Assembly: GCA_036402955.1 (NCBI GenBank)
Contig: DASWRX010000316.1
Span: forward strand, 4,996 to 68,995
Source of the DNA: Thermoanaerobaculia bacterium
Lineage (GTDB): Bacteria; Acidobacteriota; Thermoanaerobaculia; Multivoradales; UBA5704
Length of the DNA stretch: 64,000 nucleotides
Reading direction: 5' to 3'
Each line of letters opens with the position of its first letter. Positions within the stretch are counted from its first letter, which is position 1. The notes under the pieces were generated by a model. The model did not search any database. It was not told the DNA's origin and saw nothing but the letters and a program-made list of their open reading frames with translations. This document shows, in pieces, positions 10,665 to 62,761 of this stretch. Made by a program: the position numbers and the translations under genes.

Positions 10665-10675
10665 CCGGGATCTCC

Positions 10676-31634: not shown

Positions 31635-31711
31635 TGGTAGGCCCAAGCGGACTTGAACCGCTGACCTCTACGATGTCAACGTAGCGCTCTAACCAACTGA
31701 GCTATGGGCCT
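31635..31711 (-). tRNA. tRNA-Val (anticodon GAC), CCA encoded
   Basis: Hand-folded cloverleaf. Acceptor AGGCCCA/TGGGCCT, anticodon stem CTACG/CGTAG with loop TTGACAT, T arm AGCGG-TTCAAGT-CCGCT, then ACCA. Confidence 0.9.
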
Positions 31712-33390: not shown

Positions 33391-35553
33391 TCAGCCCCTC
33401 GCGCGCGCCCCGGGGACGACGAAGCGCAGCGCGCTCGCCGCTCCGGAGACCGAGACGCGGAGCGTGTACTCGCCCGGCTTGAGGTCGGCCGGCAGACGGA
33501 AGGTGGCGACGGCGCGGTCCGCTCCCCCATCGGCGCCGGCGCGCCGGTCGGCGATCTCCAGACCGCCGGCCGGGGTCTCGCGCCCGTCGGCGGCGATCAC
33601 GGTGGCCTCCCCTTTCCAGGGAGCGGCGCCGAGGTTGTAGCCGGCGACGACCAGCCGCACCTCGCGGCCGGGCGGCAGCTCCGGCCGGGCGGCCGGGACG
33701 AACGGCTGGTTGCGGAGGAGGAAGGGGTAGGCGGGCGCCGGCCCCTCCCCCCGCTGCTGCTCGCGCACCATCAGCCAGCGGTTCGGGGGCTCGGGGACGA
33801 ACGGCGGCAGCAGCACCGGCTCGGCGGGGCCGAAGGCCGGCACGTGGAGCGCGGCCACCTTGAGGCCGGAGACGCCGCTGGCGGCGTTGCGCACCAGCAC
33901 CCGCAGCGAGTAGTCGCCGGGCTGGAGGTCGAGGTGGCCGAAGAACTTGAGGCCCCCCTGCCGCAGCAGGGCGCCGGCCTTGGTGAGGTCGAGGCCGACG
34001 GTCTGGGTGAAGAAGTCGTGCACCGCGCCGCCCTCGTCGAGGGCGTAGGCATAGATCTCCACCGGCAGCGAGGCGGGCTGGCGGCCGGCGAGCAGGGTCG
34101 GGCCGCCGACCTCGATCACCACCGGCACGTAGGCCTTCTCGCCCGACGCCCGGAACGGCGCCGCCAGCACCGAGGCGGCGATGGCGTCGCTCTCCTCGCC
34201 GCTCATCACCTGGTTGGCGGCGGCGAGGAGCTTCTCGATCGGGTCCTGCTCGGCGTAGGGCTTCGGCGGGTAGTAGCCCGGCCGGTGGACCAGCCGCGCG
34301 CCGTGGACGGGCTTCTCGAGGTCCACCCGCAGCCGGTGGAAGTCCCCCTCGGCGCCCGAACGCTCGGGCTGGATGGCCAGCACGTAGGTGACGCTGGTGC
34401 GCTTGAGCATCTGACCCATCGCCGCGCCGAGGTCGTTGTAGCTCTCGTAGAGCTCGCCGCCGGTGCCGCGGGCCATCAGCAGCAGGCTCTCGCGGCCGCC
34501 CAGCCGCGGCGCTCCCTGGTCGGCGCCGGCGCGCAGGCCGCCGATATCGACCGCCTGGAGGGTGCAGTCGGCGCGGCGGAACTCCTCGAGCATCCGCTCG
34601 ACGGCGTTGCTCACCTCGGTCAGGCCGTAGCGCTCCTCGGGGCTGGTGCGCCAGCTCTCGCCGTTGAGGGACTGCTCGTGGATCGTCTGCTCCTTCTCCG
34701 CGTCGACCGTCCCCTGCAGCAGCGAGACATCGAACCCCTCGGAGAGGAAGACCAGGTACTTGCGCCCCTCGACCACCGACATCTGCCGCGCCAGGTCGGC
34801 GAGCGACTTGGAGAAGGTCACGACGCGGGTCTTCAGGGCCGTGCGGTCGGCCAGCTCCACCTGCCGGGTGATCGCTTCGATCCGCGTCAGATCCCCGGAA
34901 TCGGTCGCCTCCGAGAGCGGATCGCGGGTCACCCGCGGCGCCGCGCCGCTGGCGACGTTGTCCACCCCCAGCACCTCCTGTAGCACCAGCCGCAACGGGT
35001 CGGCCGAGCTCGCCGTGAGGTCGAACAGGCCGAGACCGCCGAGGGCGCTCTGGAGCTGCCGCCGGTCGGAGGTGAAACCGAGCACGAGCTGCGGGCCACG
35101 CGAGGCGCTGTAGGTGGCCACGGCCACCAGGTCGGTGGGATGGAGATCGGCGAGCAGGCCGGCCGCCGCCCGCCGCGCCCGCACAATCGCCTTGGGCTCG
35201 GAGAAGGCGAGGTCGAACAGCATCAGGAAGTGGCGTCGCGCCGCCGACGGCACCGGGGAGGCCCGCCCCGCCCCTGTCGCCGCCAGGTCGAGCACCTCGA
35301 AGCCGGTGACCGGCAGCCGGCGGTGCCCCTCCCAGACCGCGAAGTCGCCGGCCTGGAGGCCGCGCACGGGCTCGCCGTCGCGCACCACCTGCACCGGCAC
35401 GTCGACGGACAGCACCTGGGCGGAGCCCGTGAAGGAGGAGGGCGCGGGGTGGGCCTGGGGCGCGGACGGGGTCTGCCCCCGCCCGGCGACCGCCGTCCCC
35501 AGGCTCAGCAGCGCGACGGCGGCGCCGCGCCGGATGCCGCGTCTCAGCCGCAT
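33391..35553 (-). CDS. secreted VWA-domain protein, acidobacterial VWFA-related type with long C-terminal beta-rich extension (paralog 1)
   Basis: Signal peptide; N-terminal VDVPVQVVRDGEPVRGLQAGDF module; VWA core (FLMLFDLAFSEP...LVAVATYS...YLVFLSEGFD); ~350-aa C-terminal extension. Alignable by eye over its full length to the next three genes. Confidence 0.8.
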   Translation of the reverse strand: MRLRRGIRRGAAVALLSLGTAVAGRGQTPSAPQAHPAPSSFTGSAQVLSVDVPVQVVRDGEPVRGLQAGDFAVWEGHRRLPVTGFEVLDLAATGAGRASPVPSAARRHFLMLFDLAFSEPKAIVRARRAAAGLLADLHPTDLVAVATYSASRGPQLVLGFTSDRRQLQSALGGLGLFDLTASSADPLRLVLQEVLGVDNVASGAAPRVTRDPLSEATDSGDLTRIEAITRQVELADRTALKTRVVTFSKSLADLARQMSVVEGRKYLVFLSEGFDVSLLQGTVDAEKEQTIHEQSLNGESWRTSPEERYGLTEVSNAVERMLEEFRRADCTLQAVDIGGLRAGADQGAPRLGGRESLLLMARGTGGELYESYNDLGAAMGQMLKRTSVTYVLAIQPERSGAEGDFHRLRVDLEKPVHGARLVHRPGYYPPKPYAEQDPIEKLLAAANQVMSGEESDAIAASVLAAPFRASGEKAYVPVVIEVGGPTLLAGRQPASLPVEIYAYALDEGGAVHDFFTQTVGLDLTKAGALLRQGGLKFFGHLDLQPGDYSLRVLVRNAASGVSGLKVAALHVPAFGPAEPVLLPPFVPEPPNRWLMVREQQRGEGPAPAYPFLLRNQPFVPAARPELPPGREVRLVVAGYNLGAAPWKGEATVIAADGRETPAGGLEIADRRAGADGGADRAVATFRLPADLKPGEYTLRVSVSGAASALRFVVPGARARG

Positions 35554-35557
35554 GACG

Positions 35558-37786
35558 TCAGCGGCCTCCGCGCGCTCCCGCCGCCCCCGCCACCGCGAAC
35601 CGCGCCGTGCTGGTCTCCGACTTGCCGGAGCCGTCGGTCAGGGTGACGCGTAGCGTGTAGTCGCCCGGCGGCAGGCTGGGCGGCCGGAAGTTGGCCACCA
35701 TCCGCGTCGGGTTGCCCCCCTTGGCCGCCTCGCGGTCCACCACCTGGAGAGCGCCGCCCGGCAGCTCCCGGCCGTCGGCCCCCAGGACCTTGACCTCCGC
35801 CTTCCACTCCCCCGCGCCCAGGTTGTAGCCCTGGAGCACCAGGCGGGCGTCCTGGCCCGCGCTGAGGGCCGGCCGCGAGGTCGGCACGTAGGGCTGGTCC
35901 TTGAGCATGAAGAGGTAGGGCAGGTCCGGCTGGCCCGCCTTCTTCGCCTGCCGCAGGTTCACCCAGCGGCCAGGAGCCGGATCGACGAAGATGCCCGGCA
36001 TCAGCGCCGGCGCCCCCTGGCCCAGCGACGGCACCATGAGCTCGGTGATCCGCAGGCTGGAATTCCCCGTCGTGCCGTTGCGCACCAGAGTGCGGATCGA
36101 GTACGCGCCCGGCGGCAGCTCGAGGTTGCCGAAGAACTTCAGTCCCCCCTGGCGCAGCGCCGTCTCGGCCTTGGTCAGGTCGAGCCCCACCGTCTGGGTC
36201 ATGAAGTCCTGCACGCTGCCGTTCTGGTCCAGCGCGTAGACGTAGATCTCCACCGGCAGTTGCGGCACCTGCTTGCCGGCCAGCAGCGTCGGACCGTCCA
36301 CCTCGATCACCACCGGCACGTTCGCCCGGTCCTTGCCGGCGAACGGCGCCGCGAGCACCGCGGTGCCGATGGTGCCGCCGTCCTGGCCCATCACGTCGCT
36401 GCTGGCCTCCAGCAGCCGCTGGAAGGGCGATTGGTCCTTGTAGGGGCGCGGTGAGTAGTAGCCCTGCCGGTAGACCACCCGCGTGCCGCGCGGGGCGTTC
36501 TTCAGCTCCACCCGCAGGTTGTGGTAGGAGCCGTCCTCCTTGAGGCCTTCGGGCTGGAACGCCAGCACGTAGGTGACACTGGTGCGGCGCATCATCTGCC
36601 CCATCGCGGCCGAGAGGTCGTTGTAGTTCTCGAACAGCTCGCCGCCCGTGCTCTTCGCCATGTTGAACAGCGCCTCGCGGCCGTTGCCCCGGTGGGCGGC
36701 CAGATCGGCACCGGCGCGCAGGCCGCCGATGTCCACCGCCTCGATCATGCAGTCGGCCCGGCGGAACGACTCGAGCATCTTCTCGACCGCGTTCTGCGAG
36801 CGGGTGTCGCCGAACTTGTCGTCCGAGCCGGACGCGCCGGTGGGGGCCTGGATCCGGCTCTCGTCGCCGATGTCCTGCCGGGCCTCCTGGTCCTCCGGCG
36901 AGCCGGCGCCGAGCGACGCGGCGGAGGAGGTCGCCTTGCCCGAGACCAGCGAGCTGTCGTACCCCTCGGAGAGGTAGACCACGTACTTGCGCCCCTCGAC
37001 TTCGCCCATCAGCCGGGCGAGATCCCCAAAGCGCTGGGTGAGCTTGCGCACCTCCTGCTGCTGGATGTTGCGGTCGGCGCGCTCGGACTGGGTGGCGAAC
37101 GTGGTCAGCGTGTCGATCAGGGCGTCGTCCTTGGCCCCCTGGAGCTCGTCCCCCTGGCGCCGCGCCGACGACTGGGAGGGGGTGGAGGGCCGGGTGTCGA
37201 TCTGTCGCTGGGACTGGGTGAGCACCAGGCGCAGGGGATCGGGAGCGCGGTCGATCAGCTTCGGCAGCCCCAGGGTGTCCAGCGCGGCGGCGATCTGCCG
37301 GCGGTCCGGCGTGAAGCCGAGCACGAGCTGGGTGCCCTGCAGCGAGCTGTAGGTGCCCACCGCCACCAGGTCGGTCGGATGCAGCCCGTCGACCACCCGC
37401 TGGGCCGCCTGGCGGGCCTTGGCGATCGACTTCGGCTCGGAGAAGGAGAGGTCGAACAGCATCAGGAAGTGGCGCCGGGCCGAGACCGGAACCTGCGCCG
37501 CGGCGGCCGCCGGCGTGCCCGCGGGAACGGCGGCGGCGAGGTCGAGCATCTCGAAGCCGGTGATGTTCATCTTCTTGCGGCCTTCGTAGACCTCGAAGTC
37601 GCTCGCCTTCAGCCCGCGGACCGGCTCGCCGTCCTTGACCACCTGGACGGGAACCTCGACCGCGACGACGCTCGTCGACTCCGCGAAGGTCTGCTTCTGC
37701 TGGGCGGCTCCCGGCCAGGGCGCGAGCCCCAGCGCCGCGGCGGCGAGCAGAATGGCGATGGATTGCGCTCGGCGACTGTGTTTCAT
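35558..37786 (-). CDS. secreted VWA-domain protein (paralog 2)
   Basis: Same architecture as paralog 1. Start trimmed to ATG 37786 (MKHSRRAQSIAILLAAAALG signal peptide, SD AAGGA). Confidence 0.8.
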   Translation of the reverse strand: MKHSRRAQSIAILLAAAALGLAPWPGAAQQKQTFAESTSVVAVEVPVQVVKDGEPVRGLKASDFEVYEGRKKMNITGFEMLDLAAAVPAGTPAAAAAQVPVSARRHFLMLFDLSFSEPKSIAKARQAAQRVVDGLHPTDLVAVGTYSSLQGTQLVLGFTPDRRQIAAALDTLGLPKLIDRAPDPLRLVLTQSQRQIDTRPSTPSQSSARRQGDELQGAKDDALIDTLTTFATQSERADRNIQQQEVRKLTQRFGDLARLMGEVEGRKYVVYLSEGYDSSLVSGKATSSAASLGAGSPEDQEARQDIGDESRIQAPTGASGSDDKFGDTRSQNAVEKMLESFRRADCMIEAVDIGGLRAGADLAAHRGNGREALFNMAKSTGGELFENYNDLSAAMGQMMRRTSVTYVLAFQPEGLKEDGSYHNLRVELKNAPRGTRVVYRQGYYSPRPYKDQSPFQRLLEASSDVMGQDGGTIGTAVLAAPFAGKDRANVPVVIEVDGPTLLAGKQVPQLPVEIYVYALDQNGSVQDFMTQTVGLDLTKAETALRQGGLKFFGNLELPPGAYSIRTLVRNGTTGNSSLRITELMVPSLGQGAPALMPGIFVDPAPGRWVNLRQAKKAGQPDLPYLFMLKDQPYVPTSRPALSAGQDARLVLQGYNLGAGEWKAEVKVLGADGRELPGGALQVVDREAAKGGNPTRMVANFRPPSLPPGDYTLRVTLTDGSGKSETSTARFAVAGAAGARGGR

Positions 37787-37869
37787 GCCTCGTCCTTTCA
37801 GCCCTCGGTACGTTCCGGTTCCTCCAGCCTCTCCGGCAAGGGATACGAATAGATGCGATAAAAATAGCA

Positions 37870-40047: not shown

Positions 40048-40159
40048 GGGTCCCCTCCATCCGGGACGGCTCGCCGGCCCGGGAACGCCCTCGCTTCGGG
40101 GTCAGCTCAAACGGCAGATCAGAACCACAAGTCCCTCGACGATTTCCCTCAATAAGATA

Positions 40160-42373: not shown

Positions 42374-42420
42374 CGCGAACTCCTTGATCCGGCCGCTTCG
42401 AACGGCCCTGTGCTTCTGTC

Positions 42421-43530
42421 TCACCGGCCCAGCATGCGGGCGTAGTGGAGGGCGTCCTGGTTGGTGGCGTCCAGCTTCAGGGCCCGCGACAGGTAGTGCC
42501 GCGCCTTCTCCATGTCGCCCAGCGCGAGATAGACCTTGACGAAACCGAGGTGGACCTCGGGCAGCTCGCTGTCGAGGCGGAGGGCGCGCACCATGTAGTC
42601 GAGGGCCTTGTCGCCGTCTCCCCGAGCGAGCGCCACCTCTCCCTCGTAGACGAAGAAGAACGGGTTGGTGGTGTTCTCCGCCTCCACCTTCGCCAGCAAC
42701 CGGTTCGCCTCGTCGGCGCGGCCGAGCTCCTGGAGGGCGCGCGCCATGTTGACCAGCAGGGTCGAGTTGTCCGGGCTGATCTGGAGCCCCCGCTGGTAGG
42801 TCTCGATCGCCTTCTGCGGCTCGCCGCCGCGCGCCTGGACCACCCCGAGATTGTTGATCGCCTTGTCGAACCGTGGCGCGATCCGGGTGGCGGTGGTCAG
42901 CAGCTCGCGGGCGCGGGCGAGGTCGCCGCCGAGCAGCGCCTCGGCGCCGAGGTTGTTGTAGTAGTGCGCCGCGGCCGTCAGGTCGTCGATCGGGTTGAAC
43001 TCCTTGTAGGTCTTCTGCCGGTAGGGGATGAAGTCGAAGGGGCGCAGCACGCCGTCGATGTACATGCCGGCGACGATGTGCCCCTGGCTGACCACCATCC
43101 CCTCGCGGTGGTTCCACTTCTGGAGGTCGGTCACCTCCACATAGTAGGGACTGAGGCCCAGCTCCCGCGCCACCCCCACGAACAGGTTGACGAAGGAGAG
43201 GCAGTTGCCGGAGCGGGTGCGGTAGGTGGCGACCGCGTCCTTGGTGGGCGTCAGCGAGTACTGGAGCTGCAGGCCGTCGAAGATGAAGTCGTTGACCTGG
43301 TTGACCCGGCGCAGCTCGCTCGAGAGCTTCGGCAGCTTCTGCAGCGAGCCGCGGATGGTGTCGTCGAGCTCGAAGGGGACCTCGACCCGGGCCGCCTCCT
43401 GGGCACCGATCTCGCGGGCGTACTGCTGGCGCAGGTAGCCCACCGAATCGAACGGTTTGTACTCGGTGCAGCCCGCCGCGAGCAGGGCCGCGGCGAGGAG
43501 GGTCGCGCGGGCGGTACCTCGGTTCATCAC
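42421..43530 (-). CDS. lipoprotein with transglutaminase-like cysteine-protease core and C-terminal TPR repeats
   Basis: Lipobox LLAAGC. Cys-His-Asp arrangement (SGNCLSFVNLF ... GHIVAGMY ... PFDF) as in the transglutaminase core. At least 4 TPR-like repeats follow. Confidence 0.72.
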   Translation of the reverse strand: MMNRGTARATLLAAALLAAGCTEYKPFDSVGYLRQQYAREIGAQEAARVEVPFELDDTIRGSLQKLPKLSSELRRVNQVNDFIFDGLQLQYSLTPTKDAVATYRTRSGNCLSFVNLFVGVARELGLSPYYVEVTDLQKWNHREGMVVSQGHIVAGMYIDGVLRPFDFIPYRQKTYKEFNPIDDLTAAAHYYNNLGAEALLGGDLARARELLTTATRIAPRFDKAINNLGVVQARGGEPQKAIETYQRGLQISPDNSTLLVNMARALQELGRADEANRLLAKVEAENTTNPFFFVYEGEVALARGDGDKALDYMVRALRLDSELPEVHLGFVKVYLALGDMEKARHYLSRALKLDATNQDALHYARMLGR

Positions 43531-43540
43531 GAGTCAATAT

Positions 43541-43556
43541 AGCAGGGAATGTGCCA
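43541..43556 (-). promoter_or_regulatory. candidate sigma-54 (-24/-12) promoter facing the lipoprotein/VWA operon
   Basis: Minus strand reads TGGCAC-ATTCC-CTGCT, with GG and GC at canonical spacing. No SD lies between it and the GTGATG start. Confidence 0.42.
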
Positions 43557-43655
43557 TGGGCGCGCTGGCCGCCCTGAGCCCCGCCTCCATAGGGAGAGCG
43601 CCGCGCCGGACGGCCCGCCCCGCTCGCGGTCCTCCAAAACCTTGGATCGATCTCG

Positions 43656-43672
43656 TTCAACGAATTGAATTC
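43656..43672. promoter_or_regulatory. AT-rich overlapping palindromes (TTCAA-CGAA-TTGAA / GAATTGAATTC) midway between the two sigma-54 matches
   Basis: Read from the sequence. It lies about 100 nt from each candidate promoter, which suits an activator or IHF site. Confidence 0.3.
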
Positions 43673-43764
43673 CGCCTTGCCCCGCTCCGCCACCCGGCGC
43701 GGTCCCTTGCCATAAGGTATGATCCTTCAGCCACTTACGCCGGCCCGCGAATCCCTCCGCCGAG

Positions 43765-43780
43765 TGGCACTCCACTTGCT
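43765..43780 (+). promoter_or_regulatory. candidate sigma-54 (-24/-12) promoter facing the TonB-dependent receptor operon
   Basis: TGGCAC-TCCAC-TTGCT is an exact match to TGGCAC-N5-TTGCW. It lies about 180 nt upstream of the receptor ATG. Confidence 0.6.
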
Positions 43781-43881
43781 TGACCCAGGGTCGATCCGTT
43801 GGCTAGAGTTCTCAGGCCAACTCATACCGGGTCTCGGAACGGAAAGGGGGTGTTGCTGGACACTGCATCACAGTCACTGCG

Positions 43882-43926
43882 CTTTCATGATTTTTCCCAT
43901 GAAGCCACCGCGGCCTCTCGCGGTGG
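43882..43926 (+). promoter_or_regulatory. two adjacent stem-loops in the receptor 5' leader
   Basis: CTTTCATG..CCATGAAG (imperfect) followed by a perfect 8-bp stem CCACCGCG-gcctct-CGCGGTGG. Confidence 0.3.
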
Positions 43927-43959
43927 GCTTACCAACCACCAAACGGGAGGTTTATCAAG

Positions 43960-46962: not shown

Positions 46963-46993
46963 TCCGGTAGCTTCGGATCGACCGCATCGATTT

Positions 46994-47025
46994 CCGCCGG
47001 GGGGCGACTCCCGGCGGTTTTTTTT
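46994..47025 (+). terminator. rho-independent terminator
   Basis: CCGCCGGG-gggcgact-CCCGGCGG followed by TTTTTTTT, 30 nt after the receptor stop. Confidence 0.78.
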
Positions 47026-47094
47026 GCCTGCCGTTCGGAATACACTTCCCCGCGCACGCGGTTTGCCTCCCACGAACCCAAAGGAGACACGATC

Positions 47095-48096
47095 ATGCTT
47101 CCGCGCAGTGCCAAACCGGTTGTCTTTCTGATGTTCCTGCTGGTGGCCGCCGGCGTCCCCGTCCGGGGCCAGTCCTGGGCGGGCAAGGGGCGGCTCCAGG
47201 GGTCGGTCAAGGACGAGAGCGGCAAGCCCGTCGAGGGCGCCACCATCACCCTGCGCCCCGGCACCGGCCAGGTCGATCCAAAGGCGGAGGGCCCCAAGCC
47301 GGTGATGACCGACAGGAACGGCAAGTGGTCCATCCTCGGCCTCACCGGCGGCGCCTGGGGGGTCCTCATCCAGAAGCCGGGCTTCATGGATTCAGAGGGT
47401 CAGATCAAGGTCAACGAGTACGCCATCGCCCAGCCGTTCTCCGTCACCCTCAAGGTGCCGCCCAAGGAGGTGGCCCAGCAGGCGTCGCAGCAAGTCCAGA
47501 AGCAGAACACGCAGGCCGCCGAGGCCAAGGCGGCGCTCGAGCGGGGGAACACCCTGCTGCAGTCGGGCCAGTACGCTCAGGCCCGCGCCGCCTACGAGGA
47601 GGGAATGAGCAAGCTGGAGGAGAAGGACCGGGTCGCCCTGGAGCCGGCCATCTATCTCGCCATCGCCGATTCCTATGGCAAGGAGGGCAAGACCAACGAC
47701 GCGATCAACGCCCTCAAGAAGTCGCTCGAGGTGGACCCCAACAACGTCGACACCCTGAAGCTGCTCGTCAGCCTGCTGGTCTCCGCCAACCGCGAGGCCG
47801 AGGCGAAGCCCTACATGGCGAAGCTACCCCAGGGCACCACGATGGACCCCGCCATCCGGCTCAACCTGGGGATCAAGGCCTACAACGAGAAGAAGACGGA
47901 CGAGGCGCTGACGCAATTCAACCAGGTCATCGCCGAGAACCCGAACCTCGCCGACGTCTACTACTACCGCGCCATGGTCTACATCAGCCAGAACAAGAAC
48001 GCCCAGGCCAAGGCGGACCTCCAGAAGCTCCTCCAGCTCGAGCCCAACAACAAGTTCGCGGGCGACGCCAAGGAGTTCCTGAAGGAGCTCAAGTAG
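47095..48096 (+). CDS. secreted CarboxypepD_reg-like domain + TPR repeat protein
   Basis: Signal peptide; GRLQGSVKDESGKPVEGATITL...NGKWSILGLTGGAW (Ig-like regulatory domain); C-terminal TPR repeats. SD AAAGGAG. Confidence 0.72.
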   Translation: MLPRSAKPVVFLMFLLVAAGVPVRGQSWAGKGRLQGSVKDESGKPVEGATITLRPGTGQVDPKAEGPKPVMTDRNGKWSILGLTGGAWGVLIQKPGFMDSEGQIKVNEYAIAQPFSVTLKVPPKEVAQQASQQVQKQNTQAAEAKAALERGNTLLQSGQYAQARAAYEEGMSKLEEKDRVALEPAIYLAIADSYGKEGKTNDAINALKKSLEVDPNNVDTLKLLVSLLVSANREAEAKPYMAKLPQGTTMDPAIRLNLGIKAYNEKKTDEALTQFNQVIAENPNLADVYYYRAMVYISQNKNAQAKADLQKLLQLEPNNKFAGDAKEFLKELK

Positions 48097-48109
48097 CGCC
48101 GGCCCCCCC

Positions 48110-50212
48110 ATGCGGCGTTCCCTGCTCCCGGCGCTCGCGGTCGCCCTGGCTCTGAGCGCCGGCTGCCGCTCCGGCCCGGGCGCCGGCGACGCCGCGTCCG
48201 CCCCCTCGCGCGAGGGGGCGGACGTCGTGCTGATCACCATCGACACGCTGCGGGCCGACGCCGTCGGCTTCGCCGGCAACCGCCGGGTCGAGACGCCGGT
48301 CCTCGACCGCCTGGCGGTCGCCGGCCGGGTGTTCGACGACGCCCACGCCCACAACGTCGTCACCCTTCCCTCCCACACCAACATCCTCACCGGCCTCTAT
48401 CCCTACCAGCACGGGGTGCGCGACAACAGCGGCTTCGCCCTGTCGCCGAAGGTGCCGACGCTGGCCACCCGGCTCAAGGCCGCCGGCTACGCGACCGGCG
48501 CCTTCGTGGGCGCCTACCCGCTAGACTCGAAGTTCGGCCTGGGCCGGGGCTTCGACGTCTACGACGATCACTACCCGCGCGGCTCGAATCCGGACGACTT
48601 CGTGGTCGCCGAGCGGCGCGGGGACCAAGTGGTCGCCGCGGCCCGCGCCTGGTGGGCCGCCCAGCGTGGAAAGCGCCGCTTCCTCTGGGTCCACCTCTAC
48701 GATCCGCACGCCGCTTACGATCCGCCGGAGCCGTTCGCCAGCCGCTACCGCGACAGTCTCTACCTGGGCGAGGTGGCGGCCACCGACTCCTTCCTGGCGC
48801 CGCTGCTCGATCCCTTCTTGGACGGCAGGGAGCCGCCGGCCCTGGTGATCGTCACCGCCGACCACGGCGAGTCGCTCGGCGAGCACGGCGAGCTGACGCA
48901 CGGCCTGTTCGCCTACGAGGCCACGCTCAAGGTGCCGCTGGTCGTCTGGGGGCCGGGGGTCGCCCCGCGCCGGGACGGCCGCGCGGCGCGCCACGTCGAC
49001 ATCGTGCCGACGGTGCTCGCCTTCCTGCGGCTCGGCTCCCCCGCGGAGTTGCCCGGCCGCTCCCTGCTCGCGGCGTTCGCAGGGGCCGCGGGCACCGCGG
49101 ACGACAGCTACTTCGAGTCGCTCAGCACCTGCCTCAACCGCGGCTGGGCGCCGCTGCGCGGCCTGTTGCGCGACGGCAGGAAGCTGGTCGACCTGCCGCT
49201 CCCCGAGCTCTACGATCTGCCCCGCGATCCCAGGGAGGAGCGCAACCTCTTCGCCGCGGACCGCCGGACCGCGCACGCCCTGCGCGAGGCGCTGCCGCGC
49301 GAGTCTTCCTGGCCGCCGACGCGCGGTGCCGTCTCCGCCGAGGAGGAGGCGAGGCTGCGCAGCCTCGGCTACAGCGCCGGGGGCTCGGGCCCAGCGAAGA
49401 AAGCCTATACGGCCGCGGACGACCCCAAGAGCCTGGTCGGGGTCGACGCCAAGATCCACGCGGTGATCGGCGCCTACTCCCGCCATCGCTACGAGGAGGC
49501 CGCCGCCCTGGCGCGCCAGGTGATCGCGGTGCGGCCGGACCTGCCCGAAGCCTATGAGGATCTGGCCCTGGCGCTGCAGCAGCTCGAGCGCCGCGACGAG
49601 GCGATCGCGGCGTTGCAGGACGCCCTCCGGCGGGGGGTCGACCGCGAGTCGATCCGCCGCCAGCTCGGGCTCGCCCTCGCCGAGGCGGGGCGCGCCGCCG
49701 AAGCCGTCGCCGTGTTGCAACCGCTCGCCGCCTCGCCGTCGGCGGACGCCGCCACCCTCGACGCCCTCGGCGTCGCCCTCTCCGACGCGGGCCGACACGG
49801 CGACGCGGTGGCCGTGCTGCAACGGGCGACCGGGCGCTATCCCGGCGATCCCAAAGGGTTCGAGAACCTCGGCATCGTCGCCCTGCGCATGGACCAGCCG
49901 GAGGCCGCGCGCACCCAGCTCCAGCGGGCGCTGGCGCTCAACCCCGACCTACCGATCTCCTGGAACACCCTGGGCGTCGCCCTCTACCGGCTGGAGGGAC
50001 CCGCCGCGGCCCTCGACGCCTGGGAACGGTCGGTGGCGCTCGACGGCCGGCAATACGACGCGCTGTTCAACATCGGCCTGGTGGCCGCGCAGGCGGGCCG
50101 CGCCGCCGAGGCGCGGCAGGCCCTCACCCGCTTCGTCACCACGGCGCCGCCGGCCCGCTTCGGCCCCGACATCGAGAAGGCCCGGCGGCTGCTCGCCCAA
50201 CTGCCATCATGA
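48110..50212 (+). CDS. lipoprotein: sulfatase-fold (alkaline-phosphatase superfamily) domain + C-terminal TPR repeats (paralog A)
   Basis: Lipobox LSAGC; ITIDTLRAD; active-site position reads T-L-P-S-H (48362-48376) instead of C/S-x-P-x-R; TADHGESLGEHG; about 270 aa of TPR. Confidence 0.78.
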   Translation: MRRSLLPALAVALALSAGCRSGPGAGDAASAPSREGADVVLITIDTLRADAVGFAGNRRVETPVLDRLAVAGRVFDDAHAHNVVTLPSHTNILTGLYPYQHGVRDNSGFALSPKVPTLATRLKAAGYATGAFVGAYPLDSKFGLGRGFDVYDDHYPRGSNPDDFVVAERRGDQVVAAARAWWAAQRGKRRFLWVHLYDPHAAYDPPEPFASRYRDSLYLGEVAATDSFLAPLLDPFLDGREPPALVIVTADHGESLGEHGELTHGLFAYEATLKVPLVVWGPGVAPRRDGRAARHVDIVPTVLAFLRLGSPAELPGRSLLAAFAGAAGTADDSYFESLSTCLNRGWAPLRGLLRDGRKLVDLPLPELYDLPRDPREERNLFAADRRTAHALREALPRESSWPPTRGAVSAEEEARLRSLGYSAGGSGPAKKAYTAADDPKSLVGVDAKIHAVIGAYSRHRYEEAAALARQVIAVRPDLPEAYEDLALALQQLERRDEAIAALQDALRRGVDRESIRRQLGLALAEAGRAAEAVAVLQPLAASPSADAATLDALGVALSDAGRHGDAVAVLQRATGRYPGDPKGFENLGIVALRMDQPEAARTQLQRALALNPDLPISWNTLGVALYRLEGPAAALDAWERSVALDGRQYDALFNIGLVAAQAGRAAEARQALTRFVTTAPPARFGPDIEKARRLLAQLPS

Positions 50213-52407
50213 AAAAAAGCCGATCGAAGATCCTCCTCCTGCCGCTGCCCGTCCTCCTCGTCCTCGCCGCCTGCCACCATGGCGGGACCGACGCCGGGAG
50301 CGTGGGGCCCTTTCCCAAGGCGCCGGTGGTGCTGATCTCGATCGACACCCTGCGCTCGGACCACCTGCCGGCCTACGGTTATCGCCAGGTTGAGACGCCG
50401 GCGATCGACACCCTGCGCCGGGACGGGCTGCTCTTCGAGCGGGCCTACAGCCACACGCCGCTGACGCTCCCCTCGCACGTCTCGATGCTCACCGGCCGCC
50501 TGCCCACCGAGCACGGGGTGCGCGACAACGTCGGCTACGCCTATGACGGCGACCGCTTCCCCAACCTGGCGGCGGTGCTCCACGGAGCGGGTTATGCCAC
50601 CGGCGCCGCCGTCTCCGCCTACGTGCTGCGCCCCGAGACTGGGATGAGCCACGGGTTCGACCTCTACGACGCCGGCATCCCCGTGCACTTCAACGACTCG
50701 CTCGGCCTCTCGCAGCGCCCGGGCGGCCAGACGGCCGACGCGGCGCTCGCCTGGGCGCGGACGGTGAAGGACAGGCCGTTCTTCCTCTTCCTCCATCTCT
50801 ACGAGCCCCATTCCCCCTACGCGCCGCCCGAGCCCTTCGCCAGCCGCTACGCCGGCCGGCCGTACGACGGCGAGATCGCCACCGCCGACGCGATCGTCGG
50901 CCGCGTGCTCGCCGAGCTCAAGCGCCTGGGGGTCTACGACCGCGCCGTGATCCTCCTGCTCTCCGACCATGGCGAGGGCCTGGGGGACCACGGCGAGCAG
51001 GAGCACGGGATCTTCCTCTACCGTGAGGCGCTCCAGGTGCCGATGGTGCTGAAACTGCCGGACGGGCGGCTGGGGGGTGCCAGCGTGGCCCGGCCGGCGC
51101 AGATCGTCGACGTCTTCCCGACGCTCCTCTCGCTGGTGGGGGTGGACCTGCCGCGGGAGGCGGCAGGCCCGTTCCCCGGCCGCTCGCTGCTCGACCTGCG
51201 CGCGCCCGCCGCGGCGCCGCGCGACCTCTACGCCGAGACCTTCTACCCGCGGCTCCACTTCGGCTGGAGCGAGCTGACCTCGCTGATCCGCGACCGCCTC
51301 CACTTCATCCATGCCCCGGGTCCCGAGCTGTACGACCTGGCGGCCGATCCGGGCGAGCGGCGCGACGTGCTCTCCGGCGAGCGCCGCGCCTACGCCGCGA
51401 TGCGCGCGTCACTCCAAGGAATGGAGCGCGCGCTGCAGGCGCCCTCGGCGGTCGACGCCGAGTCGGCCCGCAAGCTGGCCGCCCTCGGCTACGCCGCCGG
51501 CGGCGTCCATACGGCCCCTGGGGAGGCGCTGCCGGACCCCAAGACCCGCATCGGCACGCTGCGGGACTTCGGGAGCGCCATGGGCCTCTTCACTCAAGGC
51601 AGGTACGCCGACGCCGTGCCGGCCTTCCACCGGCTGCTGGCCGCCACCCCGAAGATGGCCGACGGCTGGGAGGACCTCGCCCAGTCGCTCGAGAAGCTCG
51701 GCCGGCTCGACGAGGCCCTGGACGCCTACGAGCACGCCATGGACGCCTCGGGCGGCGCCTCGTTCGTGGCGGTCGCCACCGGCTCGCTGCTGCTGCGCAT
51801 GGGCCGGCTCGACGAGGCGCAGGGGCACGCCGAGCTGGGGCTCAAGGGGAGCCCGGCGATGGCCAACAGCCTGCTGGCGCAGATCGCCCTTGCCCGCGAT
51901 CGTCCGGCGGAGGCCGAGAGGGCGGCGCGGGTTGCCCTCGCCTCGCCCGGCTCGCGGATCGCGCCGCTGATGACGCTCGCCCAGGTGCTCCAGAAGCAGG
52001 GCCGGCTCGACGCGGCGCTCGGCACCGCCAACCAGGCCGCGGACGAGCTGGCCCGCACCGGCGCGGCGGGCCAGGGGTTCGCCGGCCTGCACTGGGTGCG
52101 CGGCGACATCCTCGCCCGGCTCGGCCGCAACGCCGAGGCGGAGCGGGAGTTCCTCCAGGAGATCCACGACTTCCCGGTCGACACCCGGGCCTACGCGAGC
52201 CTCTCGGTGCTCTACGCTTCCGAGGGCCGGGGCCAGGAGGCGGTCGGCGCCCTGCAACGGATGGTGGAGGCCAGCGGCTCGCCGGCCGCTTACGCCGAGG
52301 CGGTGAAGACCCTGCGCGTCCTCGGCGACCCGCAGGGCGCCGCGGAGCTGCTGCGGCACGCCCTCGGCGTTCACCCTGGCAGCAGGGAGCTGCGCGCGTT
52401 GTCCTGA
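50209..52407 (+). CDS. lipoprotein: sulfatase-fold domain + C-terminal TPR repeats (paralog B)
   Basis: Lipobox VLAAC; ISIDTLRSD; T-L-P-S-H at 50464-50478; SDHGEGLGDHG; TPR tail. The start overlaps the paralog A stop (ATGA). Confidence 0.78.
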   Translation: MKKSRSKILLLPLPVLLVLAACHHGGTDAGSVGPFPKAPVVLISIDTLRSDHLPAYGYRQVETPAIDTLRRDGLLFERAYSHTPLTLPSHVSMLTGRLPTEHGVRDNVGYAYDGDRFPNLAAVLHGAGYATGAAVSAYVLRPETGMSHGFDLYDAGIPVHFNDSLGLSQRPGGQTADAALAWARTVKDRPFFLFLHLYEPHSPYAPPEPFASRYAGRPYDGEIATADAIVGRVLAELKRLGVYDRAVILLLSDHGEGLGDHGEQEHGIFLYREALQVPMVLKLPDGRLGGASVARPAQIVDVFPTLLSLVGVDLPREAAGPFPGRSLLDLRAPAAAPRDLYAETFYPRLHFGWSELTSLIRDRLHFIHAPGPELYDLAADPGERRDVLSGERRAYAAMRASLQGMERALQAPSAVDAESARKLAALGYAAGGVHTAPGEALPDPKTRIGTLRDFGSAMGLFTQGRYADAVPAFHRLLAATPKMADGWEDLAQSLEKLGRLDEALDAYEHAMDASGGASFVAVATGSLLLRMGRLDEAQGHAELGLKGSPAMANSLLAQIALARDRPAEAERAARVALASPGSRIAPLMTLAQVLQKQGRLDAALGTANQAADELARTGAAGQGFAGLHWVRGDILARLGRNAEAEREFLQEIHDFPVDTRAYASLSVLYASEGRGQEAVGALQRMVEASGSPAAYAEAVKTLRVLGDPQGAAELLRHALGVHPGSRELRALS

Positions 52408-52497
52408 TGAAAAACCGGATGAGGGAACACCTCGTCCACGCCGCGTGTTGCAGGGGTCAGAGAACCCTTTTGAGCCTCGGCTCGGAGCCCAAGATCG

Positions 52498-54210
52498 ATG
52501 AAAACCATCCTTGCCCTGTTGTCTCTCTCCCTTCTCGCGGCTCCCCTCGCCGCGCAGGCGCCACCTCCCCCGGCCGCTGCGAGACCGGCGGCGCCTGCTG
52601 CCGCGGCTCCGGCCTCACCCCTGAACGCGGCGGTCGAGCAGGCGATCAACCTGGTGCAGGCCGGCAACAAGACCGCGGCGTTCGCCAGGCTCAAGGAGAT
52701 CGCGAGCGATCCCGCCGCCACGCAGCCCGAGCTCTCCACGGTCGGCGCCCTGTTCGTGGAGATCGGCAAGCCGCAGGAGGCCCTGAAGGTGCTGAAGCCG
52801 CTGGCCGATACCGAGGACGCCGAGCCCGCGGTGCTCTACAACGCCGGGCGGGCGGCGCTGCTCGCCGGCCAGACGGATGCGGGGCGGATCTATCTCACCC
52901 GCTCGGTGCTCAAGGAGCCGGCGTCGCCCGCGGCGCGCGAGCTCGGATTGCTGACGGCGCGGGAGGGGCGCGTGGTGGAGGCCTATTCGATGCTCCGCCC
53001 CTGGGTCCTCCACAACCCCACGGACGCCCAGGCACGGCTGATGGCAGCCAGCCTCGCCGTGCAGCTCGAGCGCCCCGACGATGCGGCGCAGTTTCTCGAG
53101 GGCATGCCGGACGACGCCACGATCCAGCTCCTCAACGCCAAGGTCAGGATTCTCCGGAAGGACGGCCCCGGCGCGGTGGCCCTCCTTAAGCCGCTGCTCG
53201 CCAAACATCCGCAGGGCATGGAGCTCGAGGTGCGGCGCTCGCTCGCCGAGGCGGATCTCCTGGCCGGCCAGCCGGCCGAGGCCGCCAAGCTGATCGAGGG
53301 CCGCGCCGCCGGCCATCCCGCGCTCGTGCTGCTGCTCGCCCGGGCGCAGCGCCAGGCCGGCAACGCCGCCGCCGCCGCCGCCACCCTGAAGCCGCTGGCG
53401 GACAAGCTCCCCGAGAGCGCCTCCGGGCTGGGCGATCCGCGGCCGGCCGCGGGCATCGCCGCCGAGTACGGCGCGCTGCTGGTGGACGCCGGGCGCGCCG
53501 CCGAAGCGGTGCCGTTCTACGAGAAGGCCACCCGCTACTACCCGCGCAACGCGGACGCCTGGAAGGGGCTCGCCCGCGCCTACGAGGCCAGCGGCCGTAA
53601 GGCGGACGCCCAGCGGGCGCTCGCCCAGGCGACGGAGGTGGCGAAGCTCCCCGCGCGACCGGCTGGGTCGGCGGCGGAGCCGTCCGCCGCGGCGGTGTCC
53701 GCCGGGTCCGGATCCGCTCCCGGGATGTCCGGCGAGCCCGAGCAGCCGCTGAGCCCGGGCCTCCAGAACGCCCTTGAGCTGATGACCAAGGGCCAGCTCG
53801 AGCCGGCGCTCACCGCCGTCCGCCAGGAGATCGCGGTGTCGAAGGACCCCCGCGCCCGGATGATCGAGCTGCGCATCCTGCTCGCGCTCAAGCGGCCGCA
53901 GGAGGGTATCCAGTCGGCCGAGGCCGCGCTCGCGGCCGACCCCAACAACCCCGACTACCTCTACATGCGGGGGGTGTCCGAGATGGCCGTGCAACGCTTC
54001 AGCTCGGCCGAGCAGGACTTCCGCAAGGCCCTGCAGATCCAGCCGCGGCACCTGCCGGCGATGAACGATCTCGCGGTGCTGCTGATCCAGGTCCACAAGG
54101 ACAAGGAGGCCCGCAAGCTCCTGGAGCAGGTTCTCCAGATCAATCCCCAGGACCAGATGGCCGCCGCGAACCTCCAGCAGTTGAAGGCCACGATGGAGGG
54201 GCAGCAGTAG
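52498..54210 (+). CDS. secreted TPR repeat protein
   Basis: Signal peptide MKTILALLSLSLLAAPLAAQA. TPR-type repeats run throughout. Confidence 0.7.
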   Translation: MKTILALLSLSLLAAPLAAQAPPPPAAARPAAPAAAAPASPLNAAVEQAINLVQAGNKTAAFARLKEIASDPAATQPELSTVGALFVEIGKPQEALKVLKPLADTEDAEPAVLYNAGRAALLAGQTDAGRIYLTRSVLKEPASPAARELGLLTAREGRVVEAYSMLRPWVLHNPTDAQARLMAASLAVQLERPDDAAQFLEGMPDDATIQLLNAKVRILRKDGPGAVALLKPLLAKHPQGMELEVRRSLAEADLLAGQPAEAAKLIEGRAAGHPALVLLLARAQRQAGNAAAAAATLKPLADKLPESASGLGDPRPAAGIAAEYGALLVDAGRAAEAVPFYEKATRYYPRNADAWKGLARAYEASGRKADAQRALAQATEVAKLPARPAGSAAEPSAAAVSAGSGSAPGMSGEPEQPLSPGLQNALELMTKGQLEPALTAVRQEIAVSKDPRARMIELRILLALKRPQEGIQSAEAALAADPNNPDYLYMRGVSEMAVQRFSSAEQDFRKALQIQPRHLPAMNDLAVLLIQVHKDKEARKLLEQVLQINPQDQMAAANLQQLKATMEGQQ

Positions 54211-54212
54211 GC

Positions 54213-55943
54213 GTGTCCAAAGAGCGAGATCCGCGGATCGGCCGGATCTTTGTTCCGCTCCTCCTCGCCGGCCTCCTGGCCGGCGCCGCCGGTCCCCAGG
54301 ATCCCGCGCGCTCCCTGATGGCCGCCGATCCGGCGCTGGCGAAGCAGGCCGGCGACGATCTGGTGGCGGCCGCCCGCGAGCGCGGCCGCGCCCTCGCCCG
54401 CCGCGGAGCCTCCGGGACGTGGAGCCGCGAGGAGGTGCAGGCCCTGGTCGCCTTCCAGCTCGTCGACCCGGAGCGGTTCGCCGGCGAGGAGGGCTTCCGC
54501 CGCCGCGTCCTCGCCCTGCTCCCCCGCGAGCTCGATCCCCAGGCTCCCGCCGGCCTGCGCCGGGCCCTGCTGCTGGAGCTCAACCAGATCCGCGGCTTCG
54601 ACTTCGCGGCCTCGGAGGAGGTCGAGCGCGCCTGGGGAGCGATCCCCCGCCGGGCCGCCGAGCGCCGGGTCCCCTTCGCTCCGGACGCCCAGTACTTCGA
54701 CGCCGACGTGGAGGGACGCCTCGCCGCCTCGGTCTACTCGCTGCCGTCGTTCTTCTTCGACCTGCCGGCGGCGGACGCCTTCCTCTCCGCGGTCCGCGCC
54801 GCGTCCCCGGAGCGTGCCCTGGTCGTGCTCACGGACTCGCCCCTGCGGGAGGGCCTGGAAGCCCGCGCCAAGGCGCTCCGCCTGCGCCTGCTCGACACCT
54901 TCGGCCGGCCCTACTCCCCCTGGCCGCGCGATCCGTTCACCCTCGTCCATACCGGGAAGGGTGCGGTGCGGGTGCTGGTGCGCCCCAATCTCCAGCCCGG
55001 CCGCGAGGAGGACGCCCACCTCGGCCCCGAGCTGGTGCGGGACCTGCCGGAGGACCTCGATCGCGCTTGGGGTAGACCTGCCTGGACCGAGGCCCCGGTG
55101 CCGTTCCACAACGGCCAGGTGCTCCTGACCCACGACGCCGCCTGGGTGACCCTGCACGCGCTGGAGCCCCGCATCCTGGCGCTGCTCGGTCTGTCCGAAG
55201 TCCCCGTCGCCAGCTTCGCCGGTGCCGAAGGGATCGACCGCTACCTCGCCGCGGCGGACCGCGCCGCCGGGGAGATGGGGGCTCTGTACGGCCGGCCGGT
55301 CCGCTTCGTCCATCCCCTGCCTCGGAAAGGCTCGGGAGACCTGGCGGGACGCGCGGACCAGATGCGCCGGATCGGCGGCGGCGCCGGCTACGACCTCGAC
55401 TCGATCGTCACCTTCGTCCCTCACGGCCCGAACGGCCGCCTCGCCGCCCTGGTGGCGGACGTCCAAGCGGGCCGCGGCCTGCTCGCCGGGGCCTCGGCCG
55501 CGGACCTCGACGCCCTGCGGCGCGGCTACGGCCTGGAGCCGGCCGGAAACGCGCTCGCCGCCGCCCTCGCCGAAGCCCAGCGCACCCCGGCGATGAATGC
55601 GCTCGGCGGGTTCCTCGACCTGACGGCCCGGCACCTCGCGGCGCAGGGCCTGGAGGTCCGGCGGCTCCCGCTGCTCACTATCCCCGTCCCCCTGCTCCAC
55701 GACCACTCCGGTCTCTCCCACGGCGAATTCCTGATCACCTGGAACAACGTGGTGGTGGAGAACGACAGGGGCGCCGTCCGCGCCGAAGGCTTCTCCTATC
55801 TCTTCCCCGCCGGCGACCGCGCCGCCCGCGACGCCTTCGCCGCCCTGGGCGTCCACCTCGACCTCCTGCCGCCGCTCGTGCGCAGCATCGTCCTCAACGG
55901 CGGCTACCGCTGTGCCTCGAACCACGTGCGCACGGCCGGCTGA
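54213..55943 (+). CDS. membrane-anchored/secreted divergent agmatine-deiminase / Porphyromonas-type PAD superfamily protein
   Basis: N-terminal hydrophobic anchor; SPWPRDPF (WxRD-type motif); C-terminal NGGYRCASN with Cys codon at 55911-55913, in the position of GGGxHCxT in guanidino-modifying enzymes. GTG start 2 nt after the preceding stop. Confidence 0.55.
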   Translation: MSKERDPRIGRIFVPLLLAGLLAGAAGPQDPARSLMAADPALAKQAGDDLVAAARERGRALARRGASGTWSREEVQALVAFQLVDPERFAGEEGFRRRVLALLPRELDPQAPAGLRRALLLELNQIRGFDFAASEEVERAWGAIPRRAAERRVPFAPDAQYFDADVEGRLAASVYSLPSFFFDLPAADAFLSAVRAASPERALVVLTDSPLREGLEARAKALRLRLLDTFGRPYSPWPRDPFTLVHTGKGAVRVLVRPNLQPGREEDAHLGPELVRDLPEDLDRAWGRPAWTEAPVPFHNGQVLLTHDAAWVTLHALEPRILALLGLSEVPVASFAGAEGIDRYLAAADRAAGEMGALYGRPVRFVHPLPRKGSGDLAGRADQMRRIGGGAGYDLDSIVTFVPHGPNGRLAALVADVQAGRGLLAGASAADLDALRRGYGLEPAGNALAAALAEAQRTPAMNALGGFLDLTARHLAAQGLEVRRLPLLTIPVPLLHDHSGLSHGEFLITWNNVVVENDRGAVRAEGFSYLFPAGDRAARDAFAALGVHLDLLPPLVRSIVLNGGYRCASNHVRTAG

Positions 55944-55974
55944 ATCGATTCAAATTCCTGGATGCGGGAGAGGG

Positions 55975-57033: not shown

Positions 57034-57049
57034 GGCCGGAGGGTGAGGG

Positions 57050-58662: not shown

Positions 58663-58694
58663 GAGTACTAAGTGGCTGAGCTAGGTCGAAAAAC

Positions 58695-59717: not shown

Positions 59718-59734
59718 GGAGGTCTCCTCGCCGG

Positions 59735-62733: not shown

Positions 62734-62761
62734 GGGAGCCCCGCCCTGTCATAATCCCCGC

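Follow-up and report, generated by a model that had tools for sequence, protein, structure and literature searches.

Oar of Myxococcus xanthus is a TonB-dependent transporter that is needed for the secretion of PopC, and transporters of Oar-type architecture make up ∼28% of all TonB-dependent transporters (PMC6434023). Here we describe a locus of 11 genes in two divergent arms, one of which begins with a transporter assigned to this architecture, in a 64,000-nucleotide stretch of DNA (the window) from a Thermoanaerobaculia bacterium of the Acidobacteriota (assembly GCA_036402955.1, contig DASWRX010000316.1, positions 4,996 to 68,995). The genes occupy positions 33391-55943 of the window and are numbered G1 to G11 (Table 1). 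The transporter, G6, has the same domain order as Oar, with a signal peptide, a CarboxypepD_reg extension, a putative TonB-box/Plug region and a predicted large barrel, a likeness of architecture. The oar gene is clustered with its own ExbB, ExbD and TonB genes, whereas the present locus has none, and the cargo PopC is a subtilisin-like protease of which no homologue is encoded here.

Several generally known features of the SusC/SusD loci (utilisomes) of Bacteroidota recur in the locus: an N-terminally extended transporter followed by an all-helical partner of the tetratricopeptide repeat (TPR) type, exported enzymes, Ig-like binding proteins, copy-number plasticity and, as predicted here, signal-dependent expression. 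Unlike SusD, however, the protein encoded after the transporter (G7) is not a lipoprotein, and none of the 11 products is a glycoside hydrolase or lyase; the enzymes are instead of phosphoester, guanidino and transglutaminase types. The locus also lacks a hybrid two-component or extracytoplasmic-function (ECF)/anti-sigma regulator and an inner-membrane transporter. Bat and MoxR-DUF58-VWA-TPR operons likewise encode several envelope von Willebrand factor A (VWA) and TPR proteins together, and the association of transglutaminase-like with VWA-like proteins is also found in MoxR-DUF58-TgpA operons. In contrast to these, our locus has no MoxR AAA+ gene and no DUF58 gene, its proteins are secreted rather than membrane-anchored, and it adds a TonB-dependent transporter and predicted sigma-54 control. 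A further point of comparison is the Glt gliding machinery of Myxococcus with its VWA adhesin CglB (PMC9946355). There too, outer-membrane beta-barrels and TPR proteins handle a surface protein with a VWA domain, with TonB/Tol-like energisation at the inner membrane; yet CglB is a lipoprotein, the Glt barrels are not TonB-dependent transporters, and no motor or Glt homologues are present in this locus. Thermoanaerobaculum is described as non-motile.

The locus consists of two co-inherited divergent operons that encode exported products only and share a strongly conserved control region, and we infer that the products of both arms act together. Gene models were established in a window of ∼70% GC, where real frames were recognised among many spurious open reading frames (ORFs) by a third-position GC above 0.9. 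As the first-pass annotation had claimed, exactly 11 genes lie between an rlmI-like gene and an ABC-transporter operon, G1 to G5 forming the minus arm and G6 to G11 the plus arm on either side of a 432-bp intergenic region, with gaps too short to hold additional genes. Its claim that all of them carry an N-terminal export signal, with no cytoplasmic product interleaved, also held: by our heuristic, 11 of 11 products have a charged or basic N-terminus followed by a hydrophobic stretch, and none has a later transmembrane-like segment. A lipobox cysteine is present in G5 and G9, and the lipobox of G8 is less canonical. Since only 8 of the 31 other genes in the window pass the same heuristic, the exported run is not a product of chance (∼4e-7, assuming that genes are independent).

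Conservation of the locus was assessed with a G5-profile scan of one genome per species, which yielded 220 relatives; the best 80 of these 220, with 58-87% G5 identity, were analysed (labelled L below). The window proteins were mapped onto these loci by tblastn, and denominators refer to loci with enough flank. Homologues of G5, G4 and G11 all came from metagenome-assembled genomes of Thermoanaerobaculia or Acidobacteriota. Among the loci, L022 shows that the cluster occurs in the genus Thermoanaerobaculum. The G6 transporter gene is divergent from G5 in 63 of 64 loci, down to the lowest G5 identity sampled; it is followed by G7 in 60 of 62, and at least one sulfatase-TPR gene comes next in 49 of 55. 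On the other side, a gene of the family to which G1 to G4 belong (VWFA, described below) follows G5 in 73 of 75 loci, being the G4 orthologue where coordinates were available, and the rlmI-like gene follows the VWFA genes in 27 of 55. This synteny between the arms, together with the conserved length and motifs of the region between them, agrees with the earlier proposal of a single functional unit; the loss of synteny in relatives that had been named as its refutation was not observed.

The unit is not, however, the whole set of 11 genes. Copy numbers per locus range from one to five for the VWFA genes (mode 4), from zero to three for the sulfatase-TPR genes and from one to two for the transporter. 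Only where G5 identity is at least 75% were G10 and G11 seen within reach; unrelated genes take their place in at least five divergent loci (L065, L072, L076, L079 and L081), and the most divergent loci have a single sulfatase-TPR gene followed by unrelated genes. Because G10, G11 and the sulfatase-TPR genes vary in this way, a conserved core survives from the first-pass proposal and the 11-gene set as such does not. In the window, L082 and L083, the plus arm ends with G10 followed by G11, and the next gene belongs to the ABC operon, a glycogen-debranching/amylase pair and a nonribosomal peptide synthetase, respectively; since these neighbours differ, G11 is the true right boundary. The ABC operon with its phosphate-type porin was considered for membership and rejected, being convergent with G11 and replaced by other genes in L082 and L083; it also adjoins G11 in L020. 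Conversely, 36 of the 80 loci have, between their G5 and G4 orthologues and on the same strand, a gene for a secreted DUF3179 protein with a HEAT-like N-terminus; this gene is absent from the window and may represent an optional twelfth component of the cluster. In L065, a beta-lactamase-family gene and a membrane-protein gene also lie between G5 and G4.

The description of the locus as an island, on the other hand, proved a misnomer. The GC content of the cluster (0.65-0.75) is like that of its flanks, its surroundings in the window are of housekeeping character (ribBA, a BamA-like Omp85 gene, TamB, RNase Y, 6S RNA, pheST, thrS and two tRNA-Val genes), and conservation is class-wide. No integrase or transposase family appeared among the Pfam and NCBIfam matches of the cluster genes and the scanned flanking genes, and a mobile or plasmid origin was discarded, no plasmid match having been found. 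The locus is part of the core chromosome and is conserved in Thermoanaerobaculia, a soil and sediment class of the Acidobacteriota.

Among the 77 loci that could be aligned, the intergenic region between G5 and G6 is 350-520 bp long in 76, L055 being the exception with 764 bp, and its alignment contains several conserved blocks. Facing G6 is a sigma-54-type -24/-12 element, TGGCACTCCACTTGC, a perfect TGGCAC-N5-TTGC and the only exact match to the consensus in 64 kb, where 0.07 would be expected. Upstream of G6 this element is exact in 55 of the 77 loci and has one mismatch in 21, or 76 together. It is abutted by sigma-70-like hexamers (TTGACC-N18-TAGAGT), which accompany the sigma-54 element in 61 of the loci and never occur alone; 15 loci have the sigma-54 element only. 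Further upstream, two 14-bp palindromes, TCCAAAACCTTGGA and TTCAACGAATTGAA, start 23 bp apart and form a candidate enhancer, or upstream activating sequence (UAS). Sites of this type (TYCAR-N4-YTGRA) number 131 in the 77 intergenic regions compared with 0.3 in shuffled sequences. They are phased at ∼99, 110, 122 and 133 nt (range 98-135) upstream of the -24 element, so that the helical phase is kept, and they lie between the two promoters, roughly 80-130 bp from each. This geometry is that expected of an enhancer at which a sigma-54 activator acts. Given the sigma-54-type promoter and the pair of phased palindromes, expression of the G6 arm probably depends on an enhancer-binding protein and a signal; no GAFTGA-motif protein, the mark of such activators, was found in the 64-kb window. 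As a separate observation, a single copy of the palindrome motif lies in the 31-bp gap between the convergent stop codons of G11 and the ABC ATPase gene, with ∼1 copy expected in 64 kb.

The G5 side of the region differs. Its putative promoter, TGCTATATT, is of the extended -10 type and belongs to a block, TTCCCTGsTATATTG, that is conserved in the 77-locus alignment, TGnTATATT being the widespread element. As the -10 lies only a few nt before the start codon, the G5 mRNA may be leaderless. A sigma-54-like TGGCAC-N5-CTGC overlaps this -10 in the sub-clade of the window; in its YTGC form, allowing at most one mismatch, it was found in 26 of the 77 loci, and a sigma-54 promoter as a universal feature of the G5 side was therefore ruled out.

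The 5′ leader of G6 (∼150-165 nt) also carries blocks conserved across the class: GAAAGGrGGTGTTGC, an internal motif resembling a Shine-Dalgarno sequence, a GC hairpin (CCACCGCGG...CGCGGTGG) with a stem that varies in sequence between loci, and CAACCACCAAACGGGAGG before the ATG. The leader could be a translational control element. A riboswitch upstream of G6 was tried and rejected: Rfam gave no match at the gathering threshold anywhere in the window, nor any at E ≤1 within positions 43400-44100. RNAalifold returned no consensus fold for 65 G6 leaders because their alignment was too gappy.

The inventory of products in the first-pass annotation could be kept in outline. The transglutaminase/TPR lipoprotein (G5), the TonB-dependent receptor (G6, by its CarboxypepD_reg and Plug domains), the CarboxypepD_reg/TPR protein (G7) and the TPR protein (G10, with TPR its only Pfam domain) were upheld, and the remaining entries were qualified as follows. 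The four supposed VWA proteins, G1 to G4, have no Pfam VWA match at E ≤0.01; what stands is membership in TIGR03436 (acidobact_VWFA) and a motif of the metal-ion-dependent adhesion site (MIDAS) type. Against a curated cut-off of 81.25 bits, TIGR03436 scores are 125.9 bits for G1 (E 2.4e-36), 144.4 bits for G3 (E 5.4e-42) and 176.6 bits for G4 (E 8.7e-52), while G2 was assigned by its identity to G4 (42% in alignment; G1, 43%) and not by a scan with the model. MIDAS-type residues of G4 (D120-L-S-F-S, T154 and D289) are invariant among the aligned orthologues; in the translations, G2 has DxSxS, and G1 and G3 a MIDAS-like DxAxS. The TIGR03436 model is covered in full (residues ∼37-444 of G4), but the proteins of this locus are long forms of ∼730 aa, in which Ig/FnIII-like domains add ∼300 residues at the C-terminus. 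As predicted by AlphaFold (pLDDT 72), G4 comprises an N-terminal beta-sandwich, an alternating beta/alpha VWA-like domain and C-terminal tandem Ig/FnIII-like sandwiches. Its best Foldseek match was the Vibrio biofilm scaffold RbmA (E 1.3e-8, with a low TM-score of 0.14/0.34); integrin and ANTXR2 appeared further down, the top matches stemming from the Ig-like domains. A sequence search of the PDB gave no match for G4. The TIGR03436 family is without an assigned function, and we found no mention of it in the literature searched.

G5 matches Transglut_core (PF01841) with E 1.2e-7 and 32.4 bits, above the cut-off of 23. The lipobox cysteine C20 and residues C109, H150 and D165 are invariant in 23 orthologues, and by this alignment the Cys109-His150-Asp165 triad looks intact. 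Searched against the PDB, the G5 profile retrieved TPR proteins only.

In G6, CarboxypepD_reg (PF13620, E 1.7e-16) spans residues 34-111 after the signal peptide, and Plug is barely above its cut-off (24.0 versus 23.9 bits). The barrel gave nothing against PF00593 at E ≤0.01 and was assigned to PF25183 (OMP_b-brl_4), which we take to be the Oar-like barrel family, by the precomputed annotation of an identical metagenome contig (ENA ERZ27256986, in which G11 agrees residue for residue and G7 to G10 at 100% identity). Between the extension and the plug lies EDVITVTAESPLLD, a putative TonB box by its resemblance to the motif; nearly every column of it, and most columns of the plug, are at least 90% conserved in 82 copies. 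A PDB search with G6 returned weak matches (E ≥0.003) to the N-terminal beta-sandwich only and none for the barrel. These domain assignments give G6 an Oar-subclass architecture. In G7, TPRs are joined to a beta-sandwich that shares 30% identity with the N-terminal extension of G6, and neither a lipobox nor a match to a SusD family was found.

Of the two proteins annotated as sulfatase-fold/TPR lipoproteins, G8 matches Pfam Sulfatase with E 1.4e-39 and G9 with E 1.4e-44, in addition to Phosphodiest (E 3.6e-16). The fold and the TPRs were thus retained, but not an identity as formylglycine (type I) sulfatases, nor, for G8, a canonical lipobox. The nucleophile site reads T-L-P-S-H in both and aligns with S-T-P-A-R and S-S-P-S-R of solved sulfatases, in place of the C/S-x-P-x-R of the formylglycine enzymes, and the proteins are therefore read as alkaline-phosphatase-superfamily hydrolases with a threonine nucleophile. 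G8 and G9, like their orthologues, contain the metal-ligand motifs IDTLR and SDHGE/ADHGE, and the pattern DTLR..T-x-P-S-H..DHGE is kept in distant ones. In the one G8-type orthologue that was read, from L076, T-L-P-S-H is kept and the lipobox cysteine is absent. T-x-P-S-H resembles the T-x-P-x-H of nucleotide pyrophosphatase/phosphodiesterases (NPP), and in motif the two proteins are closer to NPP-type phosphodiesterases.

The peptidylarginine deiminase (PAD)-like enzyme of the first-pass annotation, G11, keeps that designation by predicted fold only. It has no Pfam, NCBIfam or PDB sequence match, the PAD_porph and Amidinotransf families included. Its AlphaFold model (pLDDT 85.6) matched agmatine deiminases and PADs in Foldseek with E 2.5e-9 to 1e-6, probability 1.0 and a target-normalised TM-score of up to 0.71, at 9-15% identity. 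Cys567, in a C-terminal GGYRCASN, is invariant in the orthologue alignment, as are several His and Asp residues, and the catalytic Cys of agmatine deiminases and PADs likewise lies in a C-terminal GG-x-x-C. In contrast to those enzymes, G11 is exported and has an additional N-terminal helical domain of 150 residues. A profile search of 1.84 billion proteins recovered only 214 representatives, and the model thus places G11 in a small new family of predicted enzymes with a pentein fold, a five-fold alpha/beta propeller. In L081, the most divergent locus, a G11 homologue (42% identical) lies ∼2 kb from the sulfatase-TPR gene in opposite orientation and is followed by a secreted 5′-nucleotidase/metallophosphoesterase. 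These positions hint at a linkage of G11 to the locus that outlasts rearrangement, and at phosphoester hydrolysis as a theme that recurs.

The reading that we tentatively favour, with somewhat less than even confidence, is that of a single TonB-powered surface module under common regulation, loosely analogous to a utilisome of Bacteroidota, which would capture and trim an extracellular macromolecule and import it. Using their metal site, the VWA/Ig proteins would bind the macromolecule, for example organic matter that is phosphorylated or rich in protein. It would then be cut or stripped by the cysteine protease/transglutaminase fold, the phosphoester-type hydrolases and the guanidino-group hydrolase, docked through TPR domains, and the G6 transporter would take up the product; the direction of transport, the substrate and the complex are all conjectural parts of this scheme. 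Import is favoured because all three kinds of enzyme have hydrolase-type folds suited to trimming, and because no polymerase, glycosyltransferase or dedicated secretion component appears among the Pfam and NCBIfam matches of the 11 products. Copy numbers of the enzymes, VWFA proteins and transporter vary between species as in catabolic loci, and the tandem Ig-like domains resemble surface binding proteins of polysaccharide-utilisation loci; both count in the same direction. So do two points of general background: import is the function of almost every TonB-dependent transporter characterised so far, and uptake operons that respond to a signal are typically controlled by sigma-54 together with an enhancer-binding protein.

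Several observations weigh against import. The conserved core contains no inner-membrane transporter, cytoplasmic catabolic enzyme or regulator, and neither a SusD-like partner nor a glycoside hydrolase is found among the 11 products. A locus for scavenging a specific substrate would not usually be conserved universally, as a single locus and with an almost invariant plug. None of the VWFA proteins is a lipoprotein, and nothing accounts for how they would get to the cell surface. The predicted sigma-54 control is assigned from motifs, and neither rpoN nor an enhancer-binding-protein gene was seen in the window. Lastly, export is the role of the one Oar-subclass transporter that has been characterised (PMC6434023).

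An export or assembly function was therefore weighed against import; it is the main rival and is considered unlikely. G6 would here serve as an Oar-like, TonB-powered exit for the VWA/Ig paralogues, the cargo, which would form a protein matrix or surface layer; this layer would be crosslinked, processed or charge-edited by G5, the deiminase and the phosphoester hydrolases, with the TPR proteins as periplasmic chaperones or adaptors. The Oar architecture of G6, from CarboxypepD_reg extension and Plug to PF25183 barrel, is consistent with such a role, as are the resemblance of the C-terminal half of G4 to RbmA, the extracytoplasmic nature of all products, the lack of any other secretion route in the locus and its core, universal rather than accessory status. 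Comparative genomics has moreover linked sigma-54 to the “bacterial exterior” (PMC3162934). However, export through a TonB-dependent transporter has only one experimental precedent, the RbmA match involves generic FnIII/Ig folds at a low TM-score, and variation in the presence and copy number of the enzymes would be unexpected in a fixed assembly machine. The architecture, for all its 28% share of TonB-dependent transporters, dominates in Bacteroidetes, where it is that of the SusC-type importers. We regard as more doubtful still the fuller proposal of a new TonB-dependent export and surface-matrix system, a bacterial counterpart of extracellular-matrix maturation under a dedicated sigma-54 enhancer-binding protein.

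It is also improbable that the arms are two functionally separate operons, adjacent only through shared history or overlapping regulatory DNA. The universal sigma-54 element on the G6 side only, opposite a G5 side that is mostly of the sigma-70 extended -10 type, would fit such independence, as would the unrelated genes that can intervene between G5 and G4 (DUF3179 and, in L065, the beta-lactamase-family and membrane-protein genes). Yet the divergent pairing and the intergenic length persist in all but single loci across the range of G5 identities sampled, the palindromes sit between both promoters, and both arms encode exported proteins only and are rich in TPRs. Least probable, and indeed very unlikely, is an envelope-homeostasis or stress module with a logic akin to the Bat (aerotolerance) and MoxR-VWA-TPR operons: VWA and TPR envelope proteins in one operon do recall BatA-E, and weak TPR matches to Leptospira BatC were seen (E 0.005 and 0.001), but these are far under the cut-off (∼16-18 versus 175 bits), both the MoxR AAA+ and DUF58 genes are missing, and nothing beyond the signal peptide would anchor the VWFA proteins in the membrane.

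Literature was searched for TIGR03436, Oar/PopC, TonB and VWA proteins in Thermoanaerobaculia, sigma-54 and TonB in Acidobacteria, and the five-domain combination, and no such locus was found described, in keeping with the first-pass remark that the combination was not a recognised system. Its component kinds are already known, namely the Oar-type transporter, TIGR03436, transglutaminase-like proteins, the alkaline-phosphatase superfamily and the pentein fold; what we did not meet in this literature is the conserved combination, the sigma-54/enhancer architecture and the G11 family.

Table 1. Features of the locus, its control region and its surroundings (window positions unless a locus label is given).
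Feature	Position	Strand	Basis or remark
rlmI-like methyltransferase	32129-33148	-	Methyltrans_SAM E 1.7e-19; left flank of cluster
G1, secreted VWFA paralogue, 720 aa	33391-35553	-	TIGR03436, signal peptide
G2, secreted VWFA paralogue, 742 aa, start at MKHSRR	35558-37786	-	G4 identity, signal peptide; no Pfam hit
G3, secreted VWFA paralogue, 725 aa	37870-40047	-	TIGR03436, signal peptide
G4, best-conserved VWFA protein, 737 aa	40160-42373	-	TIGR03436
G5, transglutaminase-fold/TPR lipoprotein	42421-43527	-	Transglut_core, TPR, lipobox
Putative G5-side promoter, extended -10 type	43536-43556	-	few nt before start codon
Candidate enhancer (UAS), two 14-bp palindromes	43633-43646, 43656-43669		starts 23 bp apart
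Sigma-54-type -24/-12 element facing G6	43765-43779	+	perfect TGGCAC-N5-TTGC
Sigma-70-like hexamers	43780-43809	+	motif; abuts sigma-54 element
G6 5′ leader	43810-43959	+	class-wide conserved blocks
G6, Oar-subclass TonB-dependent outer-membrane transporter, 1000 aa	43960-46962	+	CarboxypepD_reg, Plug
G7, periplasmic CarboxypepD_reg and TPR protein	47095-48096	+	Pfam domains
G8, alkaline-phosphatase-superfamily (Pfam Sulfatase)/TPR protein	48110-50212	+	Pfam domains
G9, second alkaline-phosphatase-superfamily/TPR lipoprotein	50209-52407	+	Pfam domains, canonical lipobox
G10, secreted all-TPR protein	52498-54210	+	Pfam TPR only
G11, exported protein, predicted pentein (PAD/agmatine-deiminase) fold	54213-55943	+	AlphaFold/Foldseek
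Single TYCAR-N4-YTGRA copy	55949-55962		motif
ABC-transporter operon: ATPase with TOBE_2, two permeases, binding protein, then Porin_O_P phosphate-type porin	55975-61000	-	convergent with G11; right flank of cluster
DUF3179 protein, HEAT-like N-terminus	L052:11080-12522, L065:11287-12678	+	Pfam E 5e-64 and 2e-74
G11 homologue in L081	L081:58-1227	+	42% identity
Secreted 5′-nucleotidase/metallophosphoesterase in L081	L081:1250-2923	+	
Envelope-biogenesis block	7788-15586	-	
6S RNA	22670-22856	-	84 bits
tRNA-Val (CAC)	31466-31542	-	
tRNA-Val (GAC)	31635-31711	-	
Tandem repeat array	31810-32122		∼15 copies of a 21-bp unit
DUF2064 to DUF3857 stretch	L001:16817-21731 (window ∼61029-64000 and beyond)		

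Some neighbouring features are recorded here in their own right. A second envelope-biogenesis block lies in the left part of the window, where a 992-aa Omp85/POTRA protein (BamA/TamA-like) adjoins a TamB-family protein (ORF of up to 1636 aa), followed by a TlyA-like methyltransferase, a Wzy_C O-antigen-ligase-like protein and a family 2 glycosyltransferase (GT2). The 6S RNA gene and the two tRNA-Val genes are located between thrS and the rlmI-like gene. The repeat array stands between tRNA-Val(GAC) and the rlmI-like gene; each unit, CCGCCTCCTGAGGCGGGCCCT, is a small hairpin-forming palindrome, and the array yields spurious Arg/Pro-rich ORFs on both strands. Past the porin of the ABC operon, genes for DUF2064, methyltransferase, GT2, PEGA/CarboxypepD_reg and DUF3857 proteins may form another envelope-related cluster, DUF3857 being a usual companion of transglutaminase-like domains.

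A conserved cluster that encodes exported proteins only and is probably under signal control, with 11 genes here or 12 where the DUF3179 gene is inserted, means that a central part of the surface biology of these bacteria has gone undescribed. Through it, the large TIGR03436 family gains its first conserved genomic context, and G11 defines a small new family of predicted PAD-like fold. The tandem TYCAR-N4-YTGRA motif, with its 23-bp spacing, makes the regulator and its regulon searchable, and the question whether Oar-type transporters are importers or exporters could be put to a natural test in this locus.

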